From an uncultured virus (IMG/VR IMGVR_UViG_3300010355_000481) (lineage: Duplodnaviria; Heunggongvirae; Uroviricota; Caudoviricetes; Crassvirales): a stretch of 64,000 bases of DNA. A program made the position numbers and the translations under genes. The stretch is taken from the IMG/VR virus record IMGVR_UViG_3300010355_000481; one strand, written 5' to 3'. Under the pieces are notes generated by a model. The model was not told the DNA's origin and ran no database searches. It worked only from the letters and a program-made list of their open reading frames with translations. Below, in pieces: positions 22,766 through 60,303 of the stretch (positions are counted from its first letter, which is position 1; each line of letters opens with the position of its first letter).

Positions 22766-22852
22766 TAAGAGAAGAGGGATTCGAACCCTCACGCTACTAT
22801 TATTTCGCTTTCGATTCTAAATCGAAATTGTCTACCATTCCAGCATTCTCCC
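22766..22852 (-). tRNA. tRNA-Leu(TAG), overlapping the 3' end of the HNH gene
   Basis: TTCGA-TTTAGAA-TCGAA anticodon arm; complete cloverleaf. Confidence 0.9.
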
Positions 22853-24144: not shown

Positions 24145-24215
24145 TGCAGTATGTAGGAGTCAAACCTACGCAACTTGATTGGAAGTCAAGGGTGCTATCG
24201 TAACACTTATACTGC
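24145..24215 (-). tRNA. tRNA-Gly(TCC)
   Basis: CTTGA-CTTCCAA-TCAAG anticodon arm. Confidence 0.85.
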
Positions 24216-24365: not shown

Positions 24366-24439
24366 CGGACAACGTAGGGCTCGAACCTACTATCCTCTGT
24401 TTAACAAACAGCCGCTTATACCACTTAAGCTTCTCGTCC
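24366..24439 (-). tRNA. tRNA-Asn(GTT)
   Basis: CTGT-TTGTTAA-ACAG anticodon arm. Confidence 0.85.
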
Positions 24440-40842: not shown

Positions 40843-40873
40843 TGGTTTGTTGGTTTATTGGTTATAGGCTTCC

Positions 40874-40888
40874 CTACAATATAAGTTA
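40874..40888 (-). promoter_or_regulatory. Candidate late promoter TAACTTATATTGTAG
   Basis: Repeated motif upstream of structural operons. Confidence 0.5.
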
Positions 40889-40964
40889 GCCTTTTAATAA
40901 TGATTTTTAACTATATAAATTATTTATATGTATAGATACAACGCCTCTAAGAGGATAATGTAAA

Positions 40965-43733: not shown

Positions 43734-43745
43734 GATTAATGTCTT

Positions 43746-43758
43746 CTAATATAAGCTA
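43746..43758 (-). promoter_or_regulatory. Candidate late promoter TAGCTTATATTAG
   Basis: Repeated motif upstream of structural operons. Confidence 0.45.
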
Positions 43759-43791
43759 CGGCTTTAATTTTAAAAATGAAATTAATTTTTA

Positions 43792-46014
43792 TCATGAAAC
43801 ACGACGTCTCGAGTTAAAATATTGACGTTTCGGTAATGAGATACGTACCAGCTGTTCTTCCTTCTCTTCTGTTTCATCGAACTCTGATAATATACCTGTA
43901 TTGATATACATCTCTACGATAGATAGTACCAAACCAAATGACACCAATCTATCGGTATTCATCCCTTTTTCGTAACCAAGACATTCTCGAAGTAAACCAA
44001 TGTCTTTAATACGCTCTGCACCATATATAGTTCTGACAGTTTCTCCTTGAGGGGTGCGTATAACATCTAATATTTCCGACACGTAATCTTTAATCTTATT
44101 CATGATTAAAGTACGGAGTTTACCATTAGGTGCCATATAAATACCATAACCTCTCTGAACACTGGATTCTACCATAACATCCTCGCCCCAGATATTCTTA
44201 GCTTCCGTATCTGTCATTAGATACTTAGGCGCCAAGTTCTTTAACCGCATGTGATCGATAAATGAGGTTACATTGTTCTCGACGATAGCATAAGCATTAT
44301 ATAGACGTAATAAGTACTCGGCTTGCTCATTAGTTTGTTTACGGTCGTCATAACGACCTATATACCAGGCAACTATCTTATAACCTTCGGTCCTTAACTT
44401 AAATTCTCCCGTTTCTGGGTCTTTATATTTAATCTTGGTAATATTCTCCATGATATAAATACAAAACAATGATTCAGAGGTAGTTGTAGTGTCTGTCATG
44501 ATAGGGTCAACACCTGCAAAATATCGTCTAGCCGCTGGTTCAGACTCCCCTCGATCGACACGAGGCAGTTCTAAGATCTGTACGGCACCTCTCTTGTCAT
44601 CATCTGCTTTTCCTTTAAATGGGAATTCATCAATAGGTTTACGATCAGTATGGCCCCATTTAATTAAGCCGTCTTTATCTTCGTACAATTCACAATTAAT
44701 GATATTAGGTTTTTGTACGACCAATCGATCTTCGGTATTCTTTAAGATACGTTTAGGAAAGAAACCGTCTTTTCTTTGTGCAAATCCCTCTTCTGGACTG
44801 GTGATCTTTTGAGATAAGTCAAGTTGCTTAAGTTCGGAAGCTTTATTTGATAATTTTGCTTTTTCTTTCTCCGATTCGATAAACGCCATGGTTACTTCAA
44901 GGTCTGAATTACCATTTTCGTCGTAGAAAGGTTTATTTGTTATAGGGCAGGTACCTTCAAGGTTGTATGCCTCGGAAATAAACAAACAGCAAGGTTTACC
45001 TGCACGAAGAGGATCTTTGTCCCAGATATTTTCGACCGGGAGAAAGTCATAATCATCTGGCGCATAGAAGATAGTCTTTAAATCTTGGGCATCTTCAAGC
45101 TCACCGAGGGCTCCTGATACGATAATAGTACCAGTCATTAAACTACCTTTTTTCAAGGCAGGTGTAATATACCCCAAAGTTTTAAGCATGGTCGGGGTGA
45201 TACCTGCTTCTTCATAGAAAAATATAGTTTGGGCACCACCTACACCACTCTCAGGGCTTTTCTGGAATGTCGTACCTTTAATCAAAGAGTCATTACCAAC
45301 ATATCCACCATCTTTCAGCTCGATACGTTCGATCCATTCGAGCATTTTGGTTTTGGAAGGACCACTTTTAAAGGCCCCTTGTGTGTTTTTATCGCAGTGA
45401 GCTTTATAACGTTCGAGGAATAACCAAGATTTTTTTACTTTTGTTTCATCGATGGCACCGATCGTGTTGATCGTACCCTCAAACCAAAGATATGACCAAA
45501 ATAGGATAGCCATAATTTTTAAAGAATAACCTTTCTGACGAGCTTTTAACACTCCGACATGTTTACCCTTAAGCATAGCCAAGATAACATAGTGGAAAAA
45601 GTACAAGTCATTATCATGTACCAAGGCGAATGATTTCTTCGCACGAATATCATCCATGAACGGACAAAAATTCAGATAGAAGTGGTAAAATCCAGGTACA
45701 TACATATCATCATAGATGACACCTTTCTGACATTTTTCTTTTTCGAACGTCCAAAACTTAATATAAGTCGTAGATCCTTTGGGACCTTTTTGGTACATAC
45801 CCCCATCTAAACCAGAACGTGGGCAAGACTTGGCATATGTCATACCAGTTTCTTTCCACTTCTTCACATTCTTTAAATTGTAGTTCCCCGGCGTTTTAAA
45901 ACAAGATTCGACGTAAGTAGTAAATTCTTCTTTCGTTTCGAATAGCCTATCAACCCAAGTATCGGTGGTTGAATTATAGGAAGGGACTCTAAGGGGGAAT
46001 TCTAAAAATCTCAT
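43792..46014 (-). CDS. terL: Terminase large subunit
   Basis: LKARQKGYS Walker A; FFYEEAG Walker B; FAGVDP nuclease motif; NTDRLVS. Confidence 0.92.
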   Translation of the reverse strand: MRFLEFPLRVPSYNSTTDTWVDRLFETKEEFTTYVESCFKTPGNYNLKNVKKWKETGMTYAKSCPRSGLDGGMYQKGPKGSTTYIKFWTFEKEKCQKGVIYDDMYVPGFYHFYLNFCPFMDDIRAKKSFALVHDNDLYFFHYVILAMLKGKHVGVLKARQKGYSLKIMAILFWSYLWFEGTINTIGAIDETKVKKSWLFLERYKAHCDKNTQGAFKSGPSKTKMLEWIERIELKDGGYVGNDSLIKGTTFQKSPESGVGGAQTIFFYEEAGITPTMLKTLGYITPALKKGSLMTGTIIVSGALGELEDAQDLKTIFYAPDDYDFLPVENIWDKDPLRAGKPCCLFISEAYNLEGTCPITNKPFYDENGNSDLEVTMAFIESEKEKAKLSNKASELKQLDLSQKITSPEEGFAQRKDGFFPKRILKNTEDRLVVQKPNIINCELYEDKDGLIKWGHTDRKPIDEFPFKGKADDDKRGAVQILELPRVDRGESEPAARRYFAGVDPIMTDTTTTSESLFCIYIMENITKIKYKDPETGEFKLRTEGYKIVAWYIGRYDDRKQTNEQAEYLLRLYNAYAIVENNVTSFIDHMRLKNLAPKYLMTDTEAKNIWGEDVMVESSVQRGYGIYMAPNGKLRTLIMNKIKDYVSEILDVIRTPQGETVRTIYGAERIKDIGLLRECLGYEKGMNTDRLVSFGLVLSIVEMYINTGILSEFDETEEKEEQLVRISLPKRQYFNSRRRVS

Positions 46015-46523
46015 TAACGTATACTACTAATTTCGAAATCACCTTTAGTATTGGCTTTAAGTTCTTCGTCGATCTGTTTTTTCGTGGCTGCATAGGAAGC
46101 AGCAAGTTTGCCGGCATTCTCGATCAGTTTTGCTCTTTGGGCATAATCATCGCTAGTGATCGGGGTCGTCTTCATATAATATATTAAACGGGCCAGTTCT
46201 TCTTCAAGTTCCTCGTAGAAACGTACTAACGGGGAACTATAGATTTCCTTGAGTCTTTCTACGCAACGAGGAAGTAATGGTTCATCTTCATCGAAAGCTC
46301 CGATATTAACGTGCACCTCACGTATAGCCAATTCTCTTTTCTCTATCTCTGGATAGTTACGGAAAGGACTAGTAAAGTTGGACATTAAATCACAATAAGC
46401 AATATAGGGTTCGGCGTCAAGTTCATACTTATCGAGGATATCTTTTACTTCCTCGACCATATATGCATGCGCTGTTAATACTAAACGCCCATTTTCGGTA
46501 ACTTCAAATAATTTAGGACTCAT
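46014..46523 (-). CDS. Putative terminase small subunit
   Basis: Helical 169 aa protein coupled directly upstream of terL. Confidence 0.5.
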   Translation of the reverse strand: MSPKLFEVTENGRLVLTAHAYMVEEVKDILDKYELDAEPYIAYCDLMSNFTSPFRNYPEIEKRELAIREVHVNIGAFDEDEPLLPRCVERLKEIYSSPLVRFYEELEEELARLIYYMKTTPITSDDYAQRAKLIENAGKLAASYAATKKQIDEELKANTKGDFEISSIR

Positions 46524-46837
46524 TATGCTATGTTTTTACCCTCTACATTTCTTTTTTTACGATCGGCAGTACGTTTCTCTAACCATAAGAGCCCAGTTTC
46601 AAAATGCGTGATTGCTACCGCATTTTCTTTACAAGGGAATTTTCCCTGAAGATAGTGCATACGATCGATCAAAATCGCACATAATTCTTCGTTAGTAGTA
46701 CCGTCGTTAATAGTTATTAAATCCGTATCCGTAGTCAACACACCTGGTGCTTTTTCGATAAATTGAATTGTTTGTCCATTTTCTGGATTCTCAAAATTGG
46801 CCGCCACATATTTGTGACCTTCTGTTATAATTTGCAT
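46523..46837 (-). CDS. tad1: Tad1-like anti-defence nucleotide sponge
   Basis: GTTNEELCAILIDRMHYLQGKFPCKENAVAITHFETGLLWLEKRTADRKKRNVEG fits the Tad1 pattern. Confidence 0.75.
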   Translation of the reverse strand: MQIITEGHKYVAANFENPENGQTIQFIEKAPGVLTTDTDLITINDGTTNEELCAILIDRMHYLQGKFPCKENAVAITHFETGLLWLEKRTADRKKRNVEGKNIA

Positions 46838-46844
46838 TGGTTTA

Positions 46845-47519
46845 TTATTTTAATGTGTTTAATAAAGCCTCTACCTCTCTTCTGAGATAAGGAACTTCGT
46901 ATATTGTTTCTTTACCCGGTTCTAAGGTTTCTTCGTTGAACTTGGTATGAAGGATACGAAGAACTCCTGGACGAAGGGATTTGTTGTGATACAACACCAT
47001 TCGCATGTAGAGGGAGAGCTGAAGGTTATGTAATAAGTAGTTGCATTCATCTAAGTGAGATATTGGGGGTTGAAGTTTCTTTTTCGTGGAAAACTTACCG
47101 TTCGTTATACGGTAAGATTCTTTATAAATTTCTTTATCGCTCTTAAAATCATCTATATTTACACATTTGTTGACGACGGTGATACGATCAGGAACACCTA
47201 TCAATCCAAACTTTTCTACGATAAAGGGTTTTTCGTCGTATATAAAACCTTCTTTGACTGTATAATCCTGCTGCGTATATTCTTCACCTTCTTCGTGTTT
47301 CTTATATGCGTAATAGATATAATTTTCTGCGTCTGCATATTCTTGGCGCTTACGGTGATGGAGAGATTCCCCTTTGGTTTGCCCCTTAATACGGGCATCT
47401 TCCCATTCACGTCTGAGTTCATCGACAGTCATACCCCTTTCTTTCGACTTGGTTTTTAATTTCTTTTCCCAGTCTACAGGTGTTTTAAAACTTTCGATAA
47501 ATTCTTTTACCCCTTGCAT
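46845..47519 (-). CDS. PD-(D/E)XK exonuclease
   Basis: GESLH...EKP...GVPD...IDDFKS...LQLSLY. Confidence 0.8.
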   Translation of the reverse strand: MQGVKEFIESFKTPVDWEKKLKTKSKERGMTVDELRREWEDARIKGQTKGESLHHRKRQEYADAENYIYYAYKKHEEGEEYTQQDYTVKEGFIYDEKPFIVEKFGLIGVPDRITVVNKCVNIDDFKSDKEIYKESYRITNGKFSTKKKLQPPISHLDECNYLLHNLQLSLYMRMVLYHNKSLRPGVLRILHTKFNEETLEPGKETIYEVPYLRREVEALLNTLK

Positions 47520-47785
47520 TCAAGATATACTTTAAGTTCGTTTAATTGGTTGGCGCCGAATCCTGCATATGCAACATCATCTTTACCAGCTTCGCGATGG
47601 ATAATAGTCGGGAATCCGAATAATCCATAGCTTTGAATAATATTGTATCTATCTTCTTCCGAAGAGTTTTCATCGTCCATTATAGAGACTTTTTCCTGAG
47701 AACACTTTGGTAATGTAGATACGAATTGTTTAAGTGCTACGCATGGTGCACAATTGGCTTTTGAAATAATTACTATCTCTTTCAT
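47507..47785 (-). CDS. Thioredoxin/glutaredoxin
   Basis: CAPC motif and FPT cis-Pro loop; start revised to MKEIVII. Confidence 0.8.
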   Translation of the reverse strand: MKEIVIISKANCAPCVALKQFVSTLPKCSQEKVSIMDDENSSEEDRYNIIQSYGLFGFPTIIHREAGKDDVAYAGFGANQLNELKVYLECKG

Positions 47786-48279
47786 AATTTGGTTAGGTTG
47801 TAAGTTAACATTTCTTGTAGACGCTCGTAGGTAAACCATACGTCTTCGTTGTTTTTAATACGTTTCCATTCATCTTTGGTATATCCTACTACGTCATGGA
47901 GACTTTTGCTATATTCAAGGTTACTGTTAGAATTTATGAAAGACGCATACTCATTCTTATTCTTAGTATTTCCTTCGTAATAATCTAAGGTCTGCTTAAA
48001 CAAATGACTCATCCCCTCAGTATAAGGTACGATTCTTTTCTTGCACTTCGCTTTAAAGAATAGTTGCATACCATTAGAACATATTTGGTGATAAGCAATC
48101 AGCTCTGTACTTTCGGTATGATTATTAATCAGATCGATCATAGCTAAAGTTACGCCATTCAAACCACCAGGAGTTCGTAGGTATATTTTATACTGAGTTT
48201 CGGCATCTCCTGTATTGTACATTTGTACGAGATCTTCTAATGTTTCGTCGTCTAAGGCGGTATCGATTTTTAATATCAT
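47782..48279 (-). CDS. ClpP-like serine protease
   Basis: IYLRTPGG...ICSNG...RIVPYTEGMSH...DVWFT. Confidence 0.75.
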   Translation of the reverse strand: MILKIDTALDDETLEDLVQMYNTGDAETQYKIYLRTPGGLNGVTLAMIDLINNHTESTELIAYHQICSNGMQLFFKAKCKKRIVPYTEGMSHLFKQTLDYYEGNTKNKNEYASFINSNSNLEYSKSLHDVVGYTKDEWKRIKNNEDVWFTYERLQEMLTYNLTKL

Positions 48280-48281
48280 AA

Positions 48282-48599
48282 TTATGCTTTAATGAAAACG
48301 GTGAATTTTTTTACGTAATGACTTTCTGGATTATTACCCAGTTTAAACTGTACGGTTACTGATTTAGTATGGCGCCCAGTTTTATTAGCACTATTGAAGG
48401 TAAACTTTACCATAATAGTTTCTTCGGCTTTGAGTGGTCCGAGCCTTGCGTCGGGAGTCGTACATCCGCAGCCGGCAGAGATTCTCGTAATCTCGATATC
48501 TTGGTTAAACTTATTGGTTATGGCAAATGAATTTTCTACTACTTGCCCTTGGTTGATTGTTCCTAAATCTAGGATTTCTGGTAAGGATGATGTTATCAT
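48282..48599 (-). CDS. DUF1573 Ig-like protein
   Basis: SAGCGCTTP signature. Confidence 0.8.
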   Translation of the reverse strand: MITSSLPEILDLGTINQGQVVENSFAITNKFNQDIEITRISAGCGCTTPDARLGPLKAEETIMVKFTFNSANKTGRHTKSVTVQFKLGNNPESHYVKKFTVFIKA

Positions 48600-48964
48600 A
48601 TATAATGTATTACTTGGTTTCTATGTATATCTACAAATATTCGATTGGCTGCTTTAAACAACCCCCAATCTTCTTTATTCATCATCGGTGGGAAACATTT
48701 CTGGTCACAACTATCATCACTCATAATAACTTCATCAGTAGGACATAAACAAGGACATTGGTTAGTAGCCAAGCAGTTTTTACCGATAGGATGAGCTTTT
48801 AACATGTCTTGTCTCCAGATGATCTGTTCTTTCCTAAAATCAGATACACCAAAGATTTGTCTGAATTTAGATTGGAGGTAAGCATAAACATGTGACCAGG
48901 TAAGATTATCTTTGGTTGCGGGTATATTTATTAGTCGTAAGAGATATATCAGGCTTGATTTCAT
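48596..48964 (-). CDS. Cys-cluster hypothetical protein
   Basis: C-x4-CPCLC...C-x3-CFPPMM. Confidence 0.55.
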   Translation of the reverse strand: MKSSLIYLLRLINIPATKDNLTWSHVYAYLQSKFRQIFGVSDFRKEQIIWRQDMLKAHPIGKNCLATNQCPCLCPTDEVIMSDDSCDQKCFPPMMNKEDWGLFKAANRIFVDIHRNQVIHYI

Positions 48965-49343
48965 AAGATTCGTAGGTTTTTTTACAGAATTCTCGTTGAC
49001 GTTGAGAAGTTTCTGCTTTGATTTTCTTAAATAAAGTGATTCTTCTGAGGTATAAAGAAAATAACATCTTTATACGTTTAGGTATTGGTTTAGTAATTCT
49101 TTCTGGGTAGGTGTCCTTGAGGTACTTTCGGTATTTAAGGTAACGACGGCAGGTATTCTCTACTTGGGTAGATTTTACGATAAATGATCCTACGCCCCCG
49201 AGATAAATATTAGCTTCATCTAAATTGATCATTCGTTCTTTCATCGTCGAGAAAACTTGGGTACCGATAGATTTTACTAACCTAACATCGATACCATGCT
49301 TATCTGCAACTTTCTGGTAAACATCGTTAATGTCGCTGATCAT
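48906..49343 (-). CDS. HU/IHF-like DNA-binding protein
   Basis: Two N-terminal helices then NIYLGGVGSFIVK. Confidence 0.6.
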   Translation of the reverse strand: MISDINDVYQKVADKHGIDVRLVKSIGTQVFSTMKERMINLDEANIYLGGVGSFIVKSTQVENTCRRYLKYRKYLKDTYPERITKPIPKRIKMLFSLYLRRITLFKKIKAETSQRQREFCKKTYESYEIKPDISLTTNKYTRNQR

Positions 49344-49680
49344 ACTTTACTTTTATGTTTAGTAAAATTTCGGTATCATTTAACGGAGGGAGATAAAGAG
49401 GTGATACCTCCTTATCGTCCGTTAATATTCCGTGTTTCTTTAGATATGTTCTGGCATTATCGATAGTTGCCTTAGACTTGAACATGTCTTTTTCGGTACG
49501 AGATCTTTCAATATGGTATTGATAAGAATCTTGATTAATACCTAAACGATAAAAATCAATGATCAAGTTAATATGAGCTGCACTCAAATTAACATTATAC
49601 TCTACTGTCTTTACCTTAAGGATAAGGCGATACAATTGAGTAATATCATCTAGGGTAATATTATCGTTTAAGGTAATCAT
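49327..49680 (-). CDS. Hypothetical protein, possible wHTH
   Basis: SKATIDNARTYLKKHGIL. Confidence 0.45.
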   Translation of the reverse strand: MITLNDNITLDDITQLYRLILKVKTVEYNVNLSAAHINLIIDFYRLGINQDSYQYHIERSRTEKDMFKSKATIDNARTYLKKHGILTDDKEVSPLYLPPLNDTEILLNIKVKYDQRH

Positions 49681-50087
49681 TAGTCTGCGTCTACATCTGT
49701 GTGATGAACCGTCATTATTGGTTTAGACTCTGGGGTAGGAGTTACTAATTCTTCCATCGAACCTGAAGTAGTTGCTTCGGCATCATACGACGGTGTGTTA
49801 GTAGGAACTTCCCATGGACCTTCAGTGGCTACTGGTTGATCTGCAGGTTGAGGTTGAGGAGCTTGGGCACGCTTACTAGCTTCGATTTCTAACAACAAAT
49901 GCTCTGTCATTGTTTTGTAGTACAATGCTTCGTAAATGTGTCTATGCTTTTTGGCCTCTAATTCAAGTACGACATTGTTCTCTTTGGTTACTTTGATGTA
50001 AGTCAAACGTTGTTGTTGTGTAAACTGAGGATTAGGTGCTTGGATAGTTGCACCTGGAACTGGTTGTTTTGGAGTTTCTTGGCTCAT
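49680..50087 (-). CDS. Hypothetical protein
   Basis: 135 aa; Pro/acidic tail. Confidence 0.6.
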   Translation of the reverse strand: MSQETPKQPVPGATIQAPNPQFTQQQRLTYIKVTKENNVVLELEAKKHRHIYEALYYKTMTEHLLLEIEASKRAQAPQPQPADQPVATEGPWEVPTNTPSYDAEATTSGSMEELVTPTPESKPIMTVHHTDVDAD

Positions 50088-50093
50088 ATTGGT

Positions 50094-50414
50094 TTAAGGT
50101 TTAGTTGTAATTACTGATAAAATTTGGCTGTCTAATATAAAGGTACACAATTTACCTGAATTAGGATTTACGAATGGGGGATTATAATCTGTCGAAGGAT
50201 CAGATAAGATCTTATCTCCTACTTTATAATCAACCACTTTATCCCCTACCCCTACTATAGTACCTAAATAGTCGTGGAAAGTTTTTACCGAAGATTCGAT
50301 AGTAGCTCCGGTTAAATCTGTTTTCGGGATAATTATACCCCCGTCGGTTTGCTCTTGCTGAACCGGAAGTTCTACTAGGACTTTACTGCCCTTAATTTCA
50401 AATATTGTAGTCAT
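50094..50414 (-). CDS. groES: GroES-like co-chaperonin
   Basis: KVLVE...TDGGIIIP...GTIVGVG...KVGDKIL...ILDSQILSVI; start revised to ATG 50414. Confidence 0.8.
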   Translation of the reverse strand: MTTIFEIKGSKVLVELPVQQEQTDGGIIIPKTDLTGATIESSVKTFHDYLGTIVGVGDKVVDYKVGDKILSDPSTDYNPPFVNPNSGKLCTFILDSQILSVITTKP

Positions 50415-50430
50415 ATATAGTTGTTTCAAT

Positions 50431-50438
50431 CAAAGGTA
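50431..50438 (-). promoter_or_regulatory. Promoter (-7 box) of the leftward operon
   Basis: TACCTTTGATTG. Confidence 0.6.
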
Positions 50439-50525
50439 TACACATATATAAGTTTTCCATATATTATATCTATGATTAACTGGGAGTTAACATGTATAGA
50501 TATGGGAAAGAGTACCTTTGTATTA

Positions 50526-50657
50526 ACAGTACCTCCCGTAAGAACAGCGCACCCGATGAGGTCGTTTCCCTATCAACGAATAGCCCAAGGCATAAGTTAT
50601 GGTAGAACCCCCAGAGTAGTCCAGTTGATCACGGACGGCTCTGGGATTTTTTTTTTA
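50526..50657 (+). ncRNA. Candidate sRNA
   Basis: TACCTTTG at 50513-50520; GC-rich structured body; CCCAGAG...CTCTGGG hairpin plus T-run. Confidence 0.45.
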
Positions 50658-50899
50658 TATTTTTTTTTTCGAGGTTGTTTGGGAGATATATACCGGAGGT
50701 TTTGACAGGCACCCCCTGGTGATTTTCTATAGGCAAATAGTGTTGTGCCCGTGTCTCTAAGGTACCATACTATTTTTTGTCGCGTCCGTGTCTATTGGGT
50801 ACCGACCCCTATTTAGGCCCCACGGTTGAATTGAGTGTTGAGGTACCGCCTACCTCGACGCATAAAACATTAAATTTAAAACAAATAAAAACAAAGAAA

Positions 50900-51382
50900 A
50901 TGAAAGCAAAAGTATTAGCTCTAAGCAACCCAGAAACTCAAACAGGAAACATTAACTTCGCTTACTGCGTTGCACCTGAAGGTATGGCAGTAGCATCACT
51001 CGTTAACAAAGCGTCACTCAAGGACTTTAATATCGATAAAGAAAAGAATCCTCGAGTAATGCGTGTTTGTATCACGGGGCACGGCGCACCTGCAGTGGGT
51101 AAAGATTTGGACGGTATCAATGTTAACACGACATTACGTGGTACTACCATCGAATTACCAGGCGCAAGCTTCGCGCTTAATAAGAATCGTACCGTATCTC
51201 GATTGGTACATAACATCGGTGTTAACCAAGAGGTTGCGAAACTCACAGGGTTAACGCTTTCAGGTGTTGACTTGTTAACCGCAGCGCATAACAGTGTTAA
51301 CGCAAATCGTACTAACCGTCGTGCTAGTGCTCAACCAACTCGCAGTGTAGCGTTCAACGCTTCTAATGAGATCACTGAATAG
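50900..51382 (+). CDS. Hypothetical protein, first rightward gene
   Basis: A-rich initiation region before ATG 50900; followed by a hairpin near 51397-51419. Confidence 0.7.
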   Translation: MKAKVLALSNPETQTGNINFAYCVAPEGMAVASLVNKASLKDFNIDKEKNPRVMRVCITGHGAPAVGKDLDGINVNTTLRGTTIELPGASFALNKNRTVSRLVHNIGVNQEVAKLTGLTLSGVDLLTAAHNSVNANRTNRRASAQPTRSVAFNASNEITE

Positions 51383-52266
51383 TATTGTTGTTGATAAGGG
51401 GCCTCTTCGGGGGCTACTTATCTTCTTATACAGCACATTAACGGCGTAAATGCTCATAATTATACAGTAAACCGTTGAATATCAGGGTATTATGTCAAAA
51501 TATCAACCTCGGGAGTATACCAAACAGTAAACATTGATTTTTGTACTCTTACACAAATTGAACAGAACCCTTGATAGGCTTGAATCGTCAAAAATAGGGG
51601 TACTAACGTACCTAAATTGAGGTAATTATATAACTAATTGAATATCAATACATTATGAAAGAGATAGATATATGGTATATCTTATGCAATAAGCTAGAGA
51701 AGGTAAAATGTAGACCATATATGGTAGAATTACCAGTAAGGAGAGAAATAACTAAGCGAATTGAGATAGAAATGCTCGGTAATATAGGCTTAATTCACCA
51801 AAATATATACAGAAATGTGTCTTGAAAGGGGCTAAAAGTGGCCCTCTGAGGTAGGTAGAGAAGATTAAAACCCTTGATAGGAGCGTATTTGATATACCTC
51901 AGTTCAAAAAAAGTTGCATCAACACAATGAGGTAATTGGTAATATGTGAATAGATGAATTATCTTATATTCTATTCTCTTTATCTCTCTTATAGTTCTTT
52001 ATACAGATGCTGATAAGATCTACAGTCGTTAACCTTTAAACCAATAATATGAAACGAATAAAATTCTCTCTCTATCAGTATATGAATAAATATAAAGGAT
52101 ATACTCATAGATCTGAATATAACCATATTAGTGATATACTATACGAATATTCATATGTTGGTATTATATACTATGATGTAATTATAGTTCCTAAATTTCG
52201 TAAGATATAATAAGATCCACAGTCGTCAAACAATTAATCATTAATCAACAACAAAACAATATTATC

Positions 52267-52530
52267 ATGAATATAACAGATATTATATTAGTAATGAAGA
52301 CAGTAAGAGAATTAGATCTTAATCAAGGTTTAATTATGTCACATGCCGAAGAATCAATTGCTATAGTTAAAAGAGAAGATACTAAAGGTATTTACTATAG
52401 TATTAACCATAGAATAGATGGTAAAACACAAAAACCTTATAATGATGACGACATTATGATGTTGTTATTAGTTAACAAAGAAAGATTTACACATAAATCT
52501 TATACAACTAAAATCGTAAACTTTAAATAA
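52267..52530 (+). CDS. Hypothetical protein
   Basis: 87 aa; A-rich initiation region. Confidence 0.6.
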   Translation: MNITDIILVMKTVRELDLNQGLIMSHAEESIAIVKREDTKGIYYSINHRIDGKTQKPYNDDDIMMLLLVNKERFTHKSYTTKIVNFK

Positions 52531-52543
52531 AACAATATACATT

Positions 52544-52960
52544 ATGCAAAAGAAATCATATGTAATCAAAGAAGGTGTAGTTAACCTCGAATTAACTAAT
52601 AAAGAGTATTCACAATACTTATTATTTAAACTTGGATGTTCACCTAGCGTATTAGGAAAACCTTTTGATGATATTATACCTACTATTATTAAAGGTATTG
52701 GGAATGAATATCCTGATTTATCTATTCCGGAAGTTTTAGATAAATTAGCAAATGTTCAAAAGGTATTAGAATTATACTGTCCGACAATTGATCCTATACA
52801 AACAGAAATTGCTCCAGGAGGATTTAAAAATACACCTGAAGGTATAGTAGAAAGTGCTAAACAACCATTACAAGGTAAATATGATGAAAATGGTAAACTT
52901 ATCGCGGAAGAATCTGCAGAAGGCCCTAAAGTTATAGGTAAAATCGAACCCTTTAGATAA
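52544..52960 (+). CDS. Hypothetical protein
   Basis: 138 aa. Confidence 0.65.
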   Translation: MQKKSYVIKEGVVNLELTNKEYSQYLLFKLGCSPSVLGKPFDDIIPTIIKGIGNEYPDLSIPEVLDKLANVQKVLELYCPTIDPIQTEIAPGGFKNTPEGIVESAKQPLQGKYDENGKLIAEESAEGPKVIGKIEPFR

Positions 52961-53219
52961 ATGTACTTATATACCAAAAATGGTTACATATGTATATGAA
53001 TATGCTAAATCTGTAGGAGACGGTAAAAACGAATATTGGTTTGTTAATCAATGGGGAAATAAACAATACATATCTGAAGAAGAATACCATATCATTAACG
53101 ATACAGTAATAGCTTCACAAATGCATTAATAATATAAAGAGAGGAAGGATCCAGGCGTCGTTGCACTGTCCAGTTTCTGGTCGCCGACCTTGGTTTCCTC
53201 TCTTTAATTTAAAAACAAC

Positions 53220-53513
53220 ATGAAAGAAATAATAATAATACTTTTAGGTATATGTACACTTATATCTATGGTATATAATCCAAATGTAGAACATCAATGT
53301 ATTGATCAAACACATCTTACATGTGATGGTAATTGTGATTGCGATGGATTAGGGTGCGGAGAATATATTATACATCCTAAGTATTGTATGTGTGAATTCT
53401 GTATCGAAGCAACTGATTCGGGTGTTAGAAATTATACTCTCAAAGAAAATAAAGATAGTATATTTATATTCAACGAAGAGAATTTATTAATCGAATCATA
53501 TAAACTACGATAA
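53220..53513 (+). CDS. Membrane-anchored Cys-rich small protein
   Basis: Hydrophobic N-terminus; CDGNCDCDGLGC. Confidence 0.55.
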   Translation: MKEIIIILLGICTLISMVYNPNVEHQCIDQTHLTCDGNCDCDGLGCGEYIIHPKYCMCEFCIEATDSGVRNYTLKENKDSIFIFNEENLLIESYKLR

Positions 53514-56225
53514 TGAAACAAGTAAAAAATGATACAATTATAGGTGAGTTTGATTTAGAGATTTGGTTTTCTTTGTGGCCTAAATATCGTAATTTACAAC
53601 TTGTTTATACTAAAGTACATTTTAATGATACAATAAGTTCAATCAAACGTATAAAATATAATTTATGAAACAGATAAACACTCGAGGATTTGTCAGTAAT
53701 TTCGAATTAAATATTTGGTATCATCTGCGTACTCTAGTTAATGAATTACATCTTTATTATTTCAACACACAAATAGGTACTAAATTAACTGCAATCTCTT
53801 CAATGAAACGTAATTTATGAAACAAATAACTATTCAAAATAACATATGAAGAAAACATTTATGTATACATATAAAGATATACTTAATATATCTCGTATAT
53901 GCCCTGTAGATATTAGATATAGGTTTATTTGGGGTATATTATCCGAAATCCCTATTTATCAATTTAAAAATCAAATAATGTTTAATATATGAACCATATA
54001 GATGTTGATTTGTACGCTATCCTTAATCGCGTGAGTACAATAAGACCTACACAATCTAAATTTACTGTTATATCAACATATTTAAGTAAGTATGATTTTT
54101 ATGATATGATGACTCAAAAAACACTTCTAAATCTTAATTATGAAACCGATTAAAATACCTGGCTCACGTTCTTGTTACGCAAAAATTCTAGAAATAGTTA
54201 ATCTTTTCGACAATAATAATAATGTTAAATTTATAGCTTTACCCTTGTATACTTATACTTATCGTTCTATGTATTTTTTAATCATTAGCAATTCGTATAA
54301 ATCATGAGATCAGTTAAACAAATTAAACAATATCCAATAGATTTTGAATACAAACATGCTTATCATAATATATATGTTAGACTTTATTGGTTTAGTTACC
54401 ATAATATGCACAATGCAATAATTTTTAATTCTTATTCACACTAAAAACAAACAAAATGTTTAAAATAATCAAAATTGCAGCCTTAACAATTAGTTTATGG
54501 GTAATATCCCTATTAACTTTCCAAATATTTATACATAGTCCTATACCTAGTGTAAGTAAATGGACTTCTAATTTATACCTTCAAGCTATTTATGCAGGAG
54601 CTATAATAGGTTTATTCTTTTTTCTATTTACATACATTGTTATTAAAATAATGGATCTAATATATAGATATAATAATGGGCGGAGTTAAACAAACTATTT
54701 ACAATCAAGCTTGTTGCCATACTTTAGATCTATGTTGGCATGGTTATATTAATCTTCTTTTCAATCATCCAAAATATGTCCCATTTGGATTAAGGGGTCA
54801 AAAAAATACAATTTGTGGTAATATATGAATCAGATAGAATTAATTCCTCATGGGATTCTTCTTGGAAAAAGAGAAACTATGTTAATATTTATACGTCAGA
54901 AGTATCCACTTTTCGATATATACAAACAAACACGTATAAATTTTAGATGGTTTTTTCAATAATTAGTAAATGATATAACAGATAATGTATGAATAAAGTT
55001 GGATATAGAATTTGGAACAAAAAAATACATGAACGAGCTAAATTAAGAGATTTAGTTTATAGTTATGGACATTTATTAGTAGATTATCGAAATGTATTTA
55101 TAGGATTAGGTATTACCCCATTAGTTAACGATGTAACAGAAAGTTTTTATGAACCCAACAAATATTTGTAGGACTAGAGCTATACTCAAAAATAAAGAAT
55201 ATCTTCCAGATTATGAGATATTCCTAAAATATCTAGGTACTGACATGTATTTTAAATTAAAAGATACATTTATATATGAGTTTAGGTACAAAGAAATTAA
55301 CATTACAACTCTTAGAAATTTATGAAACAATTATATATATGGTGGAAAACACCTATTGGCGATTTATATTTTTATCTTGTAAAGATTATAGATGTAAATC
55401 CTCAATTCCCCGATGCATATATTGTAAAAATTAATGTAAATAGTAATTTATGATAAGAGTAGAATTATGGTATAATACACCCATTCAAGGGGTATATCAT
55501 CTTTGTATGGAAATGTGCCCAAAACTTATTAGAGATACGAGAATAGAATTCATGGGTTTAAATATTTAATCCAATTACATTCATGAGATCAGTACATATA
55601 CAGCTTATCCACTATACTAAAGAATTTATTTATAAAGATAGACAATTTAATTGTAACTATTCTGTATTTAATCTCATTTATAAAGAGAAGCCGGCTATTT
55701 ATGATATTTTTTTCACAAATATAGATGATTATAAATTTACAATCTTAACTAATTTAAAGTATGAGAAGAGTTCAGAACGATATACGACCTTTACTGTTAC
55801 AATTTGATGATCATATATGGACTACTTTATGTAAACATTACCCTCATTTGTATACTATATATAGAAAAACTTCTATAAATAGACAATTAATTAGTAATCG
55901 AATAATTTCAAGAATATATGAAATCAATTAGTAGACATTTACAAATTTGTATACAACGATATGATAATAATGTTTGGAGTGATTTGTGTAAATGTAAATG
56001 TCATCTTCAATTTTATGAAGCATATAGAAAAAGTTCTATAAATCATTTATTAATTAAAAATCAAATAACTTTAAGCCTGTGAAATCAATTAATCAACACA
56101 TACATTCTTATAAATATCGTTTAGATAGTTACATTTGGAATGTTTTACATCAACATTATGTTGGTATATATCATATGTTTGTAAAAACTAATATAACCGA
56201 TAAATTGCCTAATTTTAAATTATGA
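53513..56225 (+). other. Array of translationally coupled micro-ORFs (mostly 40-75 aa)
   Basis: Chained by ATGA-type overlaps; several share a DxxIW motif. Confidence 0.65.
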
Positions 56226-56369
56226 AAAATATTATAATCCTTTTTATCCTTATATGTGTGCTATGTTCGTGTCAACGACAATACACATACCAATGTACTT
56301 CTCCCAAAGGAGATGTATACTATAAGTCCATGAACGATAGTCAGTATTCTATCTACATGTCCAATATCG

Positions 56370-56747
56370 GTGACAAAACACAATGCTGTAAACAATAATC
56401 CTTTAAAATCAGTAACGATGACTGAAAATCAAATACAATTTTTAATAGAACATTTCTTTAGTAAAGATACTACTATTACGAACACGTCAGAAATAGCCCG
56501 TAAATTAATACTAGATTCTACTTGTATAGTTGCCGGCTTAGAAAATCCTTGGAAAGGGGGTATTGGTAATTTTATTACTGATAAACCTACACCAGGTGCT
56601 TATAATTGCACTACACTTACATTTAATAAAGCAGATTTTTTTAAATCATTTATATTTAAAGAAGAATTAGCTAAAGTAACGGCTCGTCATCAAAATGAAT
56701 TATATTTGCTTAATATAAAAACACAAGAAATCTTATCATTATTATAA
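56370..56747 (+). CDS. Hypothetical protein
   Basis: ORF; start possibly at MTENQIQ. Confidence 0.6.
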   Translation: MTKHNAVNNNPLKSVTMTENQIQFLIEHFFSKDTTITNTSEIARKLILDSTCIVAGLENPWKGGIGNFITDKPTPGAYNCTTLTFNKADFFKSFIFKEELAKVTARHQNELYLLNIKTQEILSLL

Positions 56748-56770
56748 ATCTTAAAAACAAAAAAAACAAG

Positions 56771-57331
56771 ATGAAACAAACAGTAACAGCAACATTTTTA
56801 TTAGCAACATTCCTTGCTGATCCAAGTAACAAACAAACGTTTGTAAAATTTAACTCTAAAGAAGAGCTTGATCGTATCTTTGATATTATCAAAGTCGAAA
56901 AAATAGAAGAAGGTTTAGATGCTATTAATAAACCATTTAAAGAAAAACTTCCTTTTCCTATATTTATAAGTTTCGGATTAGGATTTGGTACCAATCTATC
57001 TGTATTAATTACTGGAAGCATAGTACCTAGCGAAATCTTAGTAGCTAATACAGCACAACCTTCGCAAGAACCTAAATGTACTTGCGACAAGCCAAAACAA
57101 GTATTAAAAAGTGTAGAAGTTACACCTGATTTACTTGAATCTTTATTAATCGATGCTTTAGGTCTTAATCCTGAAAATGTCGAAGAATCTTTATTACTTG
57201 TAATAAATGATCAACGTAAAGAAATTGAATCACAATCTGATATTATCAAACAATGGAAAAACGATAATGAAGTTTTTATGGATAGAGTAGAACTTCTTAT
57301 GGAATTACGCGAAAAGAAAAAACAAGCTTAA
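56771..57331 (+). CDS. Hypothetical protein
   Basis: 186 aa; coiled-coil C-terminus. Confidence 0.65.
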   Translation: MKQTVTATFLLATFLADPSNKQTFVKFNSKEELDRIFDIIKVEKIEEGLDAINKPFKEKLPFPIFISFGLGFGTNLSVLITGSIVPSEILVANTAQPSQEPKCTCDKPKQVLKSVEVTPDLLESLLIDALGLNPENVEESLLLVINDQRKEIESQSDIIKQWKNDNEVFMDRVELLMELREKKKQA

Positions 57332-57343
57332 ATTAATATTTAT

Positions 57344-57377
57344 AATTACCCTGACTATTATTATAGTTAGGGTAATT
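57344..57377. other. Long inverted repeat (processing site or terminator)
   Basis: AATTACCCTGACTAT-TATT-ATAGTTAGGGTAATT. Confidence 0.55.
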
Positions 57378-57398
57378 TTACCTTAAAAACAAACAAAA

Positions 57399-57752
57399 AT
57401 GAAGAAGAAAATCATTTATTTATGCGTAGCTATCGAAGTTAACAACAACGAAGCTTACGAACAAAAGGAGATTGATCAGAATATCCAAGCAATCTTAAAT
57501 ATCAAATTATACGATAACGTAGATAAGAAAACAGTATCTCCATTATCTGTTGGCGAAATTAAGCCTGGTAATACAATTCAAAGATTGTTTGATCTTAAAT
57601 CATCCATATCTGAACATACTGCTAAATTAGGTTTAGGGGCTTCTGGACATATTACATCTAAATTATTAAATGTAGTACAAAGTGTTATTGATGAAAGTCC
57701 ATTCAAGCCTAAATTAATCAGTGATTATGAAAGAGTTTTTGGGCCAAAGTAA
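57399..57752 (+). CDS. Hypothetical protein
   Basis: 117 aa. Confidence 0.6.
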   Translation: MKKKIIYLCVAIEVNNNEAYEQKEIDQNIQAILNIKLYDNVDKKTVSPLSVGEIKPGNTIQRLFDLKSSISEHTAKLGLGASGHITSKLLNVVQSVIDESPFKPKLISDYERVFGPK

Positions 57753-58095
57753 AATGCGAAAATTACTAGCTATACCTAAATTCTTACGATATACATCTTA
57801 TTCCTGGAGTTATGCAATAGATAAAACAATAACAGCAACCGTTTATAAAGAATTTTACTTTCATAACGTCGATTGTCGTATTATAAAAAATGCTATAATT
57901 AGAAATTATGGATAAGATAAATATCACTTTAAAAGACAGAACCTTTCAATTACGCCTTAATCTAATGAAAGATATAAAACACCGTAATAATAAAGCTTCA
58001 TTAGGTTATCGTATTTGTATTTCCACAGAACTTGCTGCCGTAATCAATATTTGTACGAATAGAGCTCGTTTACCTTTAATAAATCTCAATTAATT

Positions 58096-58467
58096 ATGAT
58101 TACAGAATTTTTATTATTGTATATATTACTTATACATTTCTTAGCAGATTTTGCTTTACAGACTCATCATCAAGCTGTAAATAAAAGCACCGACGTAATG
58201 CAATTAACTTATCATTGTTTAGTCTATACATTTATATGGACATTAGCAGTGTTAGGATTACCATTTGTAATGGGTCCTAGTTATTTTGGATTTATATGTT
58301 ATACGTTCATTACTCATTATATTACTGATTATTGTACAAGTAGAATAGGCAAACCCTATTGGGAAAATCAAGATTTTCATAATGGGTTTGTTATAGTAGG
58401 GATTGATCAAATAATTCATTATATCACGCTCTATATTTCATTAAAATACATATTAAATATCTTATGA
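58096..58467 (+). CDS. DUF3307 membrane protein
   Basis: HFLADFALQ...H...THYITD...GIDQIIH. Confidence 0.8.
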   Translation: MITEFLLLYILLIHFLADFALQTHHQAVNKSTDVMQLTYHCLVYTFIWTLAVLGLPFVMGPSYFGFICYTFITHYITDYCTSRIGKPYWENQDFHNGFVIVGIDQIIHYITLYISLKYILNIL

Positions 58468-58618
58468 ACATTTCAAATATTCTTACTATTATCTTATCGA
58501 TAGTATTATTTAGCATAGCATGTCATTTGCTTAACCAACCATCAGATTGGGCTGCCGCATGCGGTATTCTGATAATTATTTCTTTAATTTATAAACTTAT
58601 AAAAACAATTCAAAAATT

Positions 58619-59653
58619 ATGATTTCATTCGCATTAGCACTGATTATATCAGTAGTATTAGCAGCATCGTTAGGATTATTTAAATTTAAACGTTGGTCTA
58701 TTTATCCCGAAAACGCTACCGTTACACAAGAGGAGTACGACAATAATCTACAATGGAAACGTGGTGGTTATGATGTCGGAGATCTTAAACCTAATACATC
58801 TCTTAGATTTAATTATAGTCACTTATTTAAAGCTATAGGTGTATTATTTTTATTCTTATTCTTGTGGGCAGTATCACCATTAGGCTTTCAACGTATCGAT
58901 GCCCGTAATATTGGATTACAAATTAGTCGTACAGGTAATGATAAAGGTATACCTAGAGTAACTCCAGTTAAAGGATTAGTATTTTATAATGCTTGGAATA
59001 ATGACGTAGAAGAAATATCTATAGGACAATTTCCCATTAAATACACTGAATTTGAAGTTCCAGCTTTAGGGGGAACACCTATACCTGTAGCTCCCGAAAT
59101 GAATCTAAGCCTTAAACCGGAAACATATGCTCAATTATATGTACATGTATTAAAAGGAGGAGATTTAAGTTCATTAAAGGATAGTTGGATTAGAACTAAT
59201 GTAATTAATGCTATGGTATATGCTACTAATAAATTTACGCCCGATAGTATATTTAACTACGCAGAAACTTATCGCAATGAAGTGTATACTCAATTATCTA
59301 AAACATTAGGATCATATTTTAACGTAGATCAAGTTAATGCAGGGCAACACCCTCCGAGAAGCATGAAAGAAGCATTACAAAAACAAGCAGATGCTGTATT
59401 AGCTACAAGACAAGCCCAATTAGATGAAACTCGTGAAATAGCTCAGAAAAATGCTAAAATAGCACAAGCACAAGGAGATTCAGCCAAAGTTGTAATTGAA
59501 GCTTCCGCAGCTGCAGAAGCAATACGTCTAAAAACAAAAGAATTATCTAGAGAATACGTTGAATATACTAAATGGATAACAGCATCCCCTGATGTACAGA
59601 GAGTATCTCAAACAGTATTAGGATCTGGAACGAATGTATTACTCAACAAGTAG
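58619..59653 (+). CDS. SPFH/Band 7 domain membrane protein
   Basis: TM helices; RIDARNIGL; C-terminal AQGD...AEAIRLK coiled coil. Confidence 0.8.
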   Translation: MISFALALIISVVLAASLGLFKFKRWSIYPENATVTQEEYDNNLQWKRGGYDVGDLKPNTSLRFNYSHLFKAIGVLFLFLFLWAVSPLGFQRIDARNIGLQISRTGNDKGIPRVTPVKGLVFYNAWNNDVEEISIGQFPIKYTEFEVPALGGTPIPVAPEMNLSLKPETYAQLYVHVLKGGDLSSLKDSWIRTNVINAMVYATNKFTPDSIFNYAETYRNEVYTQLSKTLGSYFNVDQVNAGQHPPRSMKEALQKQADAVLATRQAQLDETREIAQKNAKIAQAQGDSAKVVIEASAAAEAIRLKTKELSREYVEYTKWITASPDVQRVSQTVLGSGTNVLLNK

Positions 59654-59665
59654 TAACAATCTTGG

Positions 59666-59803
59666 TAGGTTATAGCTGAACTGGTTAGAGCATAGCTTCA
59701 AGTGAACGTTGACGATAGTGGTAAAAGACGACAATATCCTGTTCTGGTAGCTATCCAATCAGAAGTACAATGATTGGTGAGGGTTCGAATCCCTCTAACT
59801 TAA
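59666..59803 (+). ncRNA. tRNA-like RNA with enlarged anticodon loop
   Basis: Acceptor, D-arm, variable arm and GGGTTCGAATCCC T-arm present; about 46 extra nt in the anticodon loop. Confidence 0.65.
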
Positions 59804-59852
59804 CTATAACTCGGAGGCAATTGCTGATTGGTTATTTTTTCATCATGTTGGC

Positions 59853-59978
59853 TTTGGGCAGTGGCGAAATTGGTAAACGCACTGGTAAGTGAGTAATAGA
59901 GTAAGCGTAAAATAGCACTGCTCCGCGCTGGAAGCGTCACGACCGGCATATTGGGGGTTCGAATCCCTCCTCCTGAAC
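59853..59978 (+). ncRNA. tRNA-like RNA with branched domain replacing the anticodon loop
   Basis: TGGCGAAATTGGTAAACGC D-arm; CTGGT/ACCGG stem; T-arm. Confidence 0.65.
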
Positions 59979-60009
59979 TAATAATTAATCATTAAATAAT
60001 AAAAAAACT

Positions 60010-60303
60010 ATGTATAGACCAAGTTATATCGAACCTGATAATATGAAATTATTAGGTTTTGACCTGTTAAAAGACAAAGATGGATATCTTAAATACCAAA
60101 ATGACGGTACCAAACATTATAATCCAGATTATAATTCAGAATATCCAGAACCAAAAGGTAAAGTTCTTATATATGTAAACACTACATACACTAAAAATAC
60201 ATTTTATCTTAGTATACGTCAAGATGGCGATACCCGTAATTCTTACACTGGTATATGTCCGTCTGAAGAATTTTTTATCCAATTATTAAATAATATAAGG
60301 TAA
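60010..60303 (+). CDS. Hypothetical protein
   Basis: 97 aa. Confidence 0.6.
   Translation: MYRPSYIEPDNMKLLGFDLLKDKDGYLKYQNDGTKHYNPDYNSEYPEPKGKVLIYVNTTYTKNTFYLSIRQDGDTRNSYTGICPSEEFFIQLLNNIR

Follow-up and report, generated by a model that had tools for sequence, protein, structure and literature searches.

A crAss-like phage tRNA-Leu(CAA) gene with a 46-nt insert in its anticodon loop, tentatively read as an intron

A tRNA-Leu(CAA)-shaped gene is interrupted between positions 37 and 38

A 64,000-nt stretch of DNA from an uncultured virus (IMG/VR record IMGVR_UViG_3300010355_000481; this whole stretch is called the window below) carries a 138-nt gene that has the shape of tRNA-Leu(CAA) and holds 46 extra nucleotides in its anticodon loop. 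An initial annotation, made from the sequence alone, had described a tRNA-like RNA with about 46 extra nucleotides in that loop, and every element it had named was found where it had been placed.

59666..59803, + strand: whole tRNA-Leu(CAA)-shaped gene with insert, 138 nt including the discriminator A (Rfam RF00005, ARAGORN intron mode)
59666..59702, + strand: 5' part, with acceptor strand, D arm, 5' anticodon stem and loop U32 U33 C34 A35 A36 G37
59666-59672 and 59796-59802, + strand: acceptor TAGGTTA/TAACTTA, followed by the discriminator A at 59803
59692-59696 and 59750-59754, + strand: anticodon stem ATAGC/GCTAT
59697-59702, + strand: loop TTCAAG, followed by the 46 nt at 59703-59748 and then A at 59749
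59699-59701, + strand: anticodon CAA
59703..59748, + strand: A-rich insert, 46 nt (from folds)
59749..59803, + strand: 3' part, with A38, 3' anticodon stem, 7-bp variable arm, T arm, acceptor strand and discriminator A
first strand ending at 59761, second at 59771-59777, + strand: variable arm CCAATCA/TGATTGG, 7 bp
59779-59795, + strand: T arm GAGGGTTCGAATCCCTC (GAGGG-TTCGAAT-CCCTC)

The Rfam tRNA model RF00005 matched 59666-59803 over model positions 1-71 of 71 with 38.7 bits against a gathering score of 29 (E = 1.2e-4 for the whole window, 2e-6 for 59300-60300), treating the extra loop bases as a local insert of 51. ARAGORN in default mode reported 21 genes in the window and missed the one at 59666; with introns enabled, a check that the initial annotation had proposed, it reported 22 genes window-wide, among which tRNA-Leu(caa) with a 46-nt intron was the only intron-bearing one. 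No intron-mode call was obtained in any of 20 controls made by 300-nt block shuffles of the window. When 59703-59748 was removed in silico, the remaining 92 nt were called in default mode as a class II tRNA-Leu(caa). Because the Rfam match, the intron-mode call, the shuffles and the in-silico removal all agree, the gene is confirmed as real and far above chance.

The cloverleaf is complete, with 27/27 stem pairs intact and a 3-bp D stem accompanied by A14, G18 and G19. The strands of the anticodon stem enclose 53 bases, not seven, and the gene as written lacks the seven-base loop of a tRNA (RF00005); excising exactly 59703-59748 restores a canonical 7-nt loop (U33, CAA, G37, A38). The insert occupies the canonical 37/38 position (G37 = 59702, A38 = 59749), and the cut set by ARAGORN, shifted by a single base in the 3' direction, is an equally good fit. 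The gene also has the marks of a bacterial class II tRNA-Leu, namely a long 7-bp variable arm, the discriminator A73 (59803) and the Leu anticodon CAA, and ARAGORN assigned Leu identity both with the insert present and after its in-silico removal. Leu identity is set by A73, and the leucyl-tRNA synthetase LeuRS disregards the anticodon. The earlier reading as Leu(CAA) with an insert at 37/38 is borne out by the intron-mode call and the in-silico removal together. ARAGORN in tmRNA mode found nothing in 59501-60100.

The insert is predicted to mask the anticodon

Folded at minimum energy, the 138 nt retain the cloverleaf and gain a longer anticodon arm. In this fold, and in the centroid fold as well, U33-C34-A35 pair with UGG at 59745-59747; A36, G37 and U59703 form a 3-nt bulge and U59748 a 1-nt bulge, GAACG (59704-59708) pairs with UGUUC (59740-59744) and thereby joins both ends of the insert, and the other 31 A-rich insert bases form a loose loop. 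Along the strands, an outer stem is followed by a 3'-strand bulge, the helix formed by the anticodon with the 3'-terminal part of the insert, a 5'-strand bulge with the 37/38 junction and an insert-insert helix; as modelled, this strand topology is that of protein-spliced tRNA introns. Since the 3' end of the insert is predicted to pair with U33-C34-A35 and the insert ends with each other, the anticodon would be masked and the anticodon arm lengthened in the primary transcript. The stability of the fold was no better than chance (gene, z -1.0; arm, -0.34; isolated insert, +0.66).

A search of 59300-60300 against Rfam 15 with E up to 10 gave eight matches, two of them to tRNA and six at chance level (E at least 0.17), with no group I intron among them. 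Group I introns have a conserved P3-P8 core and span at least about 200 nt, and the initial annotation's judgement that the insert is too short for one stands, with 46 nt and a best non-tRNA Rfam match in the region at E 0.17. By eye, there is no T-loop-like stretch in 59703-59748.

In the collections searched, the insert is an orphan. Four exact patterns made from the exons and the insert had 0 matches in the viral_contigs collection. A 19-mer of the gene matched twice in genome_contigs, in a Thermococcus and an Aquificaceae metagenome-assembled genome, and both matches were set aside as chance because their flanks are unlike. With blastn against 50,697 phage records, only the T arm of the gene was matched (23 records, query 108-132), and neither 59300-60300 nor 40000-60000 had a nucleotide match among these 50,697 deposited phage genomes. 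The best score of the insert against the other retrieved loci was 26, inside the range of 22-29 from 30 shuffles, and that against the rest of the window was 25 (shuffled median 24, 95% point 30).

The gene lies in a crAss-like phage

Proteins of the window match the Crassvirus major capsid family PF23898 (E 1e-13) and crAss tail ring protein 2 PF25702 (E 3e-19), as well as the PHROG portal and terminase families. The open reading frame (ORF) just upstream of the locus (58619-59653) belongs to PHROG 200, and its relatives, in 26 phage records and all below 60% identity, occur only in Flavobacterium, Bacteroides, crAss-like and Prevotella Lak phages; no relative of this protein was found in viral_contigs. 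The phage tRNA-Tyr is 91 nt long and has a long variable arm, which is the bacterial and not the archaeal type, and the ORFs of the window are open under the standard code. The virus is a crAss-like phage of a bacterial host, probably one of the Bacteroidota. The stretch was found whole or in part in activated sludge and wastewater sequencing runs (24 rows from 17 studies, dated 2016 to 2025, of which two have at least half of the sampled words).

As the initial annotation had proposed, the gene lies in what looks like the early region: it sits among small + strand ORFs without known function in an AT-rich block, far from the opposite-strand tRNA array at 22.3-25.9 kb. The ORFs adjoining the locus matched no Pfam family, no solved relative worth naming (E up to 1) and no usable Atlas entry. 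At the edge of the array lies a GIY-YIG, SegE-like homing-endonuclease-like gene (20502-20948, - strand; PF19835, E 3e-17), and an HNH one lies inside it (22800-23492, - strand; PHROG 10822, E 4e-43). Two Rfam tRNA genes, at 24145-24215 (- strand, 55.8 bits) and 24366-24439 (- strand, 42.6 bits), are unlisted by default ARAGORN. Elsewhere in the window, 60 N stand at 12701-12760 within the ORF of a 1540-aa virion protein (10065-14687).

The position at 37/38 and the pairing between anticodon and insert would fit a true bulge-helix-bulge intron in an archaeal virus. This is contradicted by the Crassvirus capsid and tail-ring families, by protein neighbours found in Flavobacterium, Bacteroides and Prevotella phages, by the long-arm bacterial-type tRNA-Tyr and by the geometry of the motif; moreover, tRNA_int_endo was matched only in four archaeal controls and in 0/4 related phage records. 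We regard such an origin as close to impossible. Thus, of the link to archaeal and eukaryotic introns drawn in the initial annotation, the position holds, but the crAss-like phage, its tRNA-Tyr, the failed geometry and the lack of a splicing enzyme family in the scanned ORFs speak against it.

A neighbouring tRNA-like gene belongs to a widespread family

Downstream of the tRNA-Leu(CAA) gene lie the following features.

59804..59854, + strand: spacer between the two tRNA-like genes, 51 nt, crossed by an RNA-library contig
59855..59977, + strand: second tRNA-like gene (Rfam 24.5 bits, below the cut-off; ARAGORN -ps, Val(cac))

With a lowered threshold, ARAGORN read 59855-59977 as Val(cac) with a 50-nt insert. 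This insert of about 50 nt (59887-59936) lies between positions 32 and 33, before UCACGA (CAC = 59938-59940), and the 5' part of the gene is tRNA-Leu-like, its 5' 30 bases resembling phage tRNA-Leu genes (93% identity, E 0.03-0.3). In deposited phage records only generic tRNA parts of the gene were matched and never the insert, and a 20-mer of the insert had 0 matches in a collection with one genome per species from 185,579 prokaryote species. A 16-mer and a 20-mer from the insert retrieved five true relatives among 12 viral-contig matches, plus 23 metagenome loci. Full-length copies stand at 21 of these loci; at another the copy is truncated by the end of its contig, and at the last it follows the family only through the 5' part. 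One of the loci, L029, is the window's own sequence, and its metagenome record extends about 12 kb beyond the window. The family loci are window 59855-59977, L002, L006, L008, L009, L012-L016 and L018-L035. In L017 (about 1143-1202), the 5' part and the start of the insert are followed by diverging sequence without a T arm, probably a broken copy.

Among 20 distinct family sequences the acceptor stems differ greatly and the insert is nearly invariant, with 22 consecutive insert bases identical in 20/20, which places it among the most conserved phage RNA modules in the present analysis. Acceptor pairing is 7/7 in 15 sequences and 6/7 in four; only the window copy has 5/7 (59855-59861/59970-59976), with its insert intact, and its closest relative, L030, pairs perfectly. 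RNAalifold and pair counts gave a three-way-junction insert, with an invariant 4-bp helix GUGA/UCAC that takes in U33 and the putative anticodon CAC, a second invariant helix of eight pairs and a short covarying hairpin (first pair C-G in 13 sequences, G-C in seven). Nine of 24 pairs change on both sides, 99.2% of cells are paired, and 0/500 shuffles reached any of the five measures. The split loop of the family keeps a pyrimidine at 32, U33, a purine at 37 and A38 in 20/20, many of these rows being close kin. Judged by comparative sequence analysis, this looks like an undescribed phage RNA family that is widespread and absent from Rfam 15. Two gapped patterns for family alleles without the insert gave 0 matches, the exon type of the first pattern not being present in that collection. 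No conserved protein neighbours of the family were found, the ORFs that clustered being the translated RNA genes. A possible likeness of the neighbour's insert to part of 23S rRNA led to a comparison with the Escherichia coli rrnH operon for ribosomal RNA mimicry, with scores of 21-24 (shuffled medians 21-22, 95% points 26-27), not above chance. The 3' part of that insert may also resemble type VI-B CRISPR repeats, although the literature searched for the family's motifs together with Cas13b offered nothing usable on this.

The invariant junction and covarying peripheral hairpin of the family resemble a catalytic or ligand-binding core, and no protein machinery for removal was found in the scanned ORFs of the window; both would fit a very small undescribed ribozyme in the insert that cleaves or splices itself. 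Yet the 46 nt of the tRNA-Leu(CAA) insert have no stable fold and no Rfam ribozyme or intron match at E up to 10, and the two inserts are unlike, sharing only AAGUGA. We know of no precedent for two precise cuts and a ligation by so small an RNA, and self-splicing is very improbable here.

Further tRNA-like genes on related contigs have a common Leu-like frame (acceptor AGTCAGG/CCTGACT, the same T arm and a Leu-like D arm) around differing interiors of 40-90 nt.

Shared-frame tRNA-like genes: L006 (up to four; G001 162-176 kb, the same as L039), L008, L012, L013, L018, L019, L027 and L034

In L008 (832-930), a hairpin capped by a four-base loop takes the place of the anticodon loop. Many matches of the tRNA model in the related records far exceed tRNA length, and intron readings by ARAGORN often give anticodons that start with A. 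In the complete 345-kb phage G002, three odd tRNA-like genes lie at 98-99 kb and a 13-gene array at 333-337 kb; neither RtcB nor a splicing endonuclease family was found in that record. Because of the family inserts, the shared-frame variants and the odd G002 cluster, phages of this kind appear to make tRNA look-alikes beyond plain decoders, so the tRNA-Leu(CAA) gene adjoins such a look-alike. As further observations, in L034 (512-611) the anticodon arm is replaced by a hairpin resembling a T arm, and L009 (2272-2400, G002 at about 99.2 kb) holds a class II tRNA-like sequence with about 60 extra nt in the variable arm and G in place of U33.

These relatives raise the possibility that the RNA is never spliced and acts as a stable tRNA-shaped molecule, trimmed by RNase P and RNase Z and perhaps charged by LeuRS, that would serve early as a decoy, a sponge or a carrier of a small RNA. 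The lengthened anticodon arm would then be the working part, or would simply make a look-alike that does not decode. Consistent with this, the gene lies in an early-looking + strand block 34 kb from the decoder array; the neighbour keeps its near-invariant insert though its acceptor pairs at only 5/7, as if the insert mattered more than the tRNA; and the shared-frame genes with their differing long interiors, the L008 hairpin, the over-long model matches with A-starting anticodons and the G002 cluster away from its array all point the same way. On the other hand, nothing marks the 46-nt insert as a functional module, weakly structured (z +0.66) and orphan as it is, and antisense targets of either insert within the window scored at best 30-33 against a shuffled median of 35. 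The clean insertion, which leaves a full loop in two pieces, would be needless in a pure scaffold, and no partner protein was recognised among the neighbouring ORFs by family, solved relative or Atlas match. The scaffold or decoy alternative raised in the initial annotation thus gains some weight from the neighbouring gene and the related phages and finds neither a partner protein nor a functional module in the insert.

The gene is stable across samples

Four runs from four studies were compared as contigs, which show no ends, strand or rare forms. In the DNA runs X2 and X3 the tRNA-Leu(CAA) gene is unchanged. The contig of run X8 has nine changes, of which the eight listed fall at 59581-59599, within the last part of the upstream ORF; from 59600 to its end at 59713 this contig is unchanged. 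A run labelled as a metatranscriptome, X24, gave one 171-nt contig on 59702-59872 with three letter differences, of which the listed one, A>G at 59780, replaces A-U by G-U in the T stem and keeps the pair. This is the only change within the gene among the four runs, and the insert (59703-59748) is kept in every contig that reaches it, in full in X2, X3 and X24 and up to 59713 in X8. The gene is therefore stable across samples. In X3 one contig agrees with the window as far as 59804, one base past the discriminator, and is dissimilar from there on; this suggests that in this strain the gene is a module separate from what follows and that the downstream part is swapped between strains.

Removal of the insert by proteins is the tentatively favoured reading

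Tentatively, and with the balance of probability still somewhat against it, we read the locus as a live class II tRNA-Leu(CAA) gene of a crAss-like phage, in which G37 and A38 are parted by an insert of the same kind as the 'enigmatic introns' of Lak and other huge phages. In the mechanism that we put forward with the same reserve, the insert is a protein-dependent intron that gates a minor tRNA-Leu. The RNA would be made early, within a + strand transcript, and its ends trimmed as in any tRNA. Decoding would be blocked until a protein endonuclease cuts at the two bulges flanking the anticodon-insert helix (after 59702 and after 59748), and the halves would be joined by a ligase, for example the host's RtcB, a protein that is present in the Bacteroides thetaiotaomicron control genome. 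The insert may act as a gate or be a selfish passenger on a minor UUG-reading tRNA. The candidate endonuclease is the weakest step of this proposal. The clean insertion at 37/38, the intact cloverleaf and the existence of Lak alleles with and without inserts favour splicing.

Several observations weigh against this reading. The X24 contig runs unbroken from the insert through the 3' part of the gene and the spacer into the start of the next gene, and so shows that the unspliced form exists in one RNA library, though DNA may contaminate such a library; no joint skipping the insert was found in the contigs of 4/4 runs, contigs being a form in which rare variants are dropped. Thus, for the question for which the initial annotation had called for RT-PCR or tRNA-seq, the runs supply the unspliced form in one RNA-library contig and no spliced form in the contigs of four runs. 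Among 70/79 window ORFs scanned with Pfam, none matched a tRNA splicing endonuclease, RtcB, RNA ligase, kinase/phosphatase or 2'-phosphotransferase; of the other nine, three encode the portal, the terminase and the 1540-aa virion protein, and six share sequence with tRNA genes or a longer ORF. PHROG scans of 73/79 ORFs likewise found nothing of the tRNA splicing endonuclease, RtcB or RNA ligase type, and the search for an RNA ligase elsewhere in the genome that the initial annotation had proposed thus came out negative in both sets of scanned ORFs. Since the window is only part of the genome, this negative does not extend to the whole phage. Among the four phage records that carry the neighbour family, one of them complete, neither tRNA_int_endo nor RtcB was matched (0/4 each).

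The structure and the setting of the gene weigh in the same direction. The modelled bulge-helix-bulge fails in its geometry, with a helix of 3 bp (U33-G, C34-G, A35-U) and bulges of 3 and 1 nt, where the motif has a helix of 4 bp between two 3-nt bulges that lie on opposite strands and contain the cut sites. The main tRNA array of the phage, 21 genes on the - strand at 22.3-25.9 kb, lies about 34 kb from the tRNA-Leu(CAA) gene, which adjoins a tRNA-like gene with a decayed acceptor, and no homologue with which constraint on the insert could be tested was found in the searched collections. A CAA reader also seems of little use. UUG makes up 13/245 Leu codons (5%) in 22 + strand ORFs and 146/1044 (14%) in 26 - strand ORFs, against 64% and 53% of Leu codons for TTA in these two sets, and the array already has tRNA-Leu(UAA) and tRNA-Leu(UAG). 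Because UUG is rare and a normal tRNA-Leu(UAA) is present, it is less likely that the gene is kept for decoding. Both normal Leu tRNAs of the phage have A37, unlike the G37 of the tRNA-Leu(CAA) gene, and G37 after A36 is unusual in a UUG reader. As a side observation, the codons read by the two insert-bearing genes, UUG and GUG, both end in G and double as alternative start codons, which may be coincidence; they are rare in this phage (5-14% of Leu and 3-8% of Val codons).

The missing enzyme, the rare codon, the neighbour whose acceptor has decayed around its 'cargo' and the unspliced RNA contig favour the rival in which the RNA is never spliced, as does the redundancy of a UUG decoder. We judge that rival possible and, on balance, doubtful.

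The same redundancy and rarity of the codon, together with the unstructured orphan insert, the acceptor decay next door and the lack of splicing enzymes in the scanned window ORFs, would also fit a dead or dying gene, that is, a redundant tRNA-Leu(CAA) hit by a 46-nt insertion that is neither spliced nor used and has simply not yet decayed. Against such a history, all stems and conserved tRNA letters are intact and the sole variant within the gene (A>G at 59780) keeps its base pair. The stretch has been present in runs from 2016 to 2025, the four compared runs from four studies differ within the gene by that one change, and the same kind of insert recurs in many phages. We consider a dead gene distinctly unlikely.

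Returning to removal by proteins, a more general claim would be that phages of bacteria have their own protein-dependent, non-ribozyme tRNA splicing, in which anticodon-masking inserts are cut by an undiscovered endonuclease and sealed by an RtcB-type ligase. We consider this rather unlikely. If it were true, a phage could switch particular tRNAs on during infection, or such inserts could spread as tiny selfish elements. To our knowledge, it is generally accepted that in bacteria tRNA introns are removed only by self-splicing group I ribozymes. Whichever holds at the present locus, a hidden route of splicing or tRNA look-alikes with a purpose other than decoding, the biology would be new. With 138 nt and junctions predicted to the base (59702|59703 and 59748|59749), the locus offers a compact substrate, one of the smallest if the splicing route is true. 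The annotation of phage tRNA genes would change as well, because default ARAGORN misses both insert-bearing genes here.

Comparison with known systems

Synthetic 'tRNA scaffolds' for RNA expression consist of a tRNA body that carries a foreign RNA. They resemble the related contigs in having foreign RNA in the anticodon arm of a tRNA body; unlike such scaffolds and look-alikes, the present gene keeps a complete, split anticodon loop. In the Y RNA YrlA, both ends lie in the protein-binding stem and not in an acceptor, and it had no Rfam match in 59300-60300 (E up to 10).

Group I introns in tRNA anticodon loops, as described in the part of the source available to us (PMC3984707), likewise interrupt a bacterial-type tRNA gene in the anticodon loop, but the present insert has only 46 nt and no Rfam intron match at E up to 10. 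The archaeal and eukaryotic bulge-helix-bulge introns (PMC4090602, available in part) share with it the 37/38 position, a 5' junction lying in a 3-nt bulge, an anticodon paired to the insert's 3' end and, further out, an insert-insert helix. They differ from it in that the helix here has 3 and not 4 bp, one bulge has 1 and not 3 nt, the host is bacterial and no splicing endonuclease was found in 70/79 ORFs.

The closest likeness is to phages. 'Enigmatic introns' were described in the tRNAs of Lak megaphages and stated there to be the first reported in phage tRNAs (Devoto 2019, PMC6784885, in the portions available). Table S6 of that paper, within the same portions, gives possible introns of 23-141 nt that start at positions 37-41, with sensible anticodons for Tyr GTA, Phe GAA, Thr TGT, Gly TCC, Val TAC and Leu TAA; the Val(TAC) and Leu(TAA) ones, of 52 and 76 nt, come from another huge phage, and alleles with and without one insert were reported. 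The Lak Tyr, Phe, Thr and Gly inserts have a T-loop-like stretch and were described as possibly encoding tRNA. A 2026 survey (PMC13037316, accessible in part) reported intronic sequences in tRNAs of 262 alternatively coded jumbo phages. In the accessible parts of Yutin 2021 (PMC7886860), tRNA-intron phrases are absent, and a published removal route for short phage tRNA inserts was not located in the literature searched.

The present locus differs from the Lak ones in lacking the T-loop-like stretch of their Tyr, Phe, Thr and Gly inserts, in lying in a crAss-like phage with standard-code ORFs, and in that no insert-free allele was found in the searched collections. It is like them in being a short non-group-I insert just 3' of the anticodon whose removal leaves a sensible tRNA: in both cases a phage of a Bacteroidota-type host carries, one or two bases after the anticodon, an insert of tens of bases with no known removal route. 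Short phage tRNA inserts have stood without explanation since 2019, and the present gene extends them from giant phages to a crAss-like phage.

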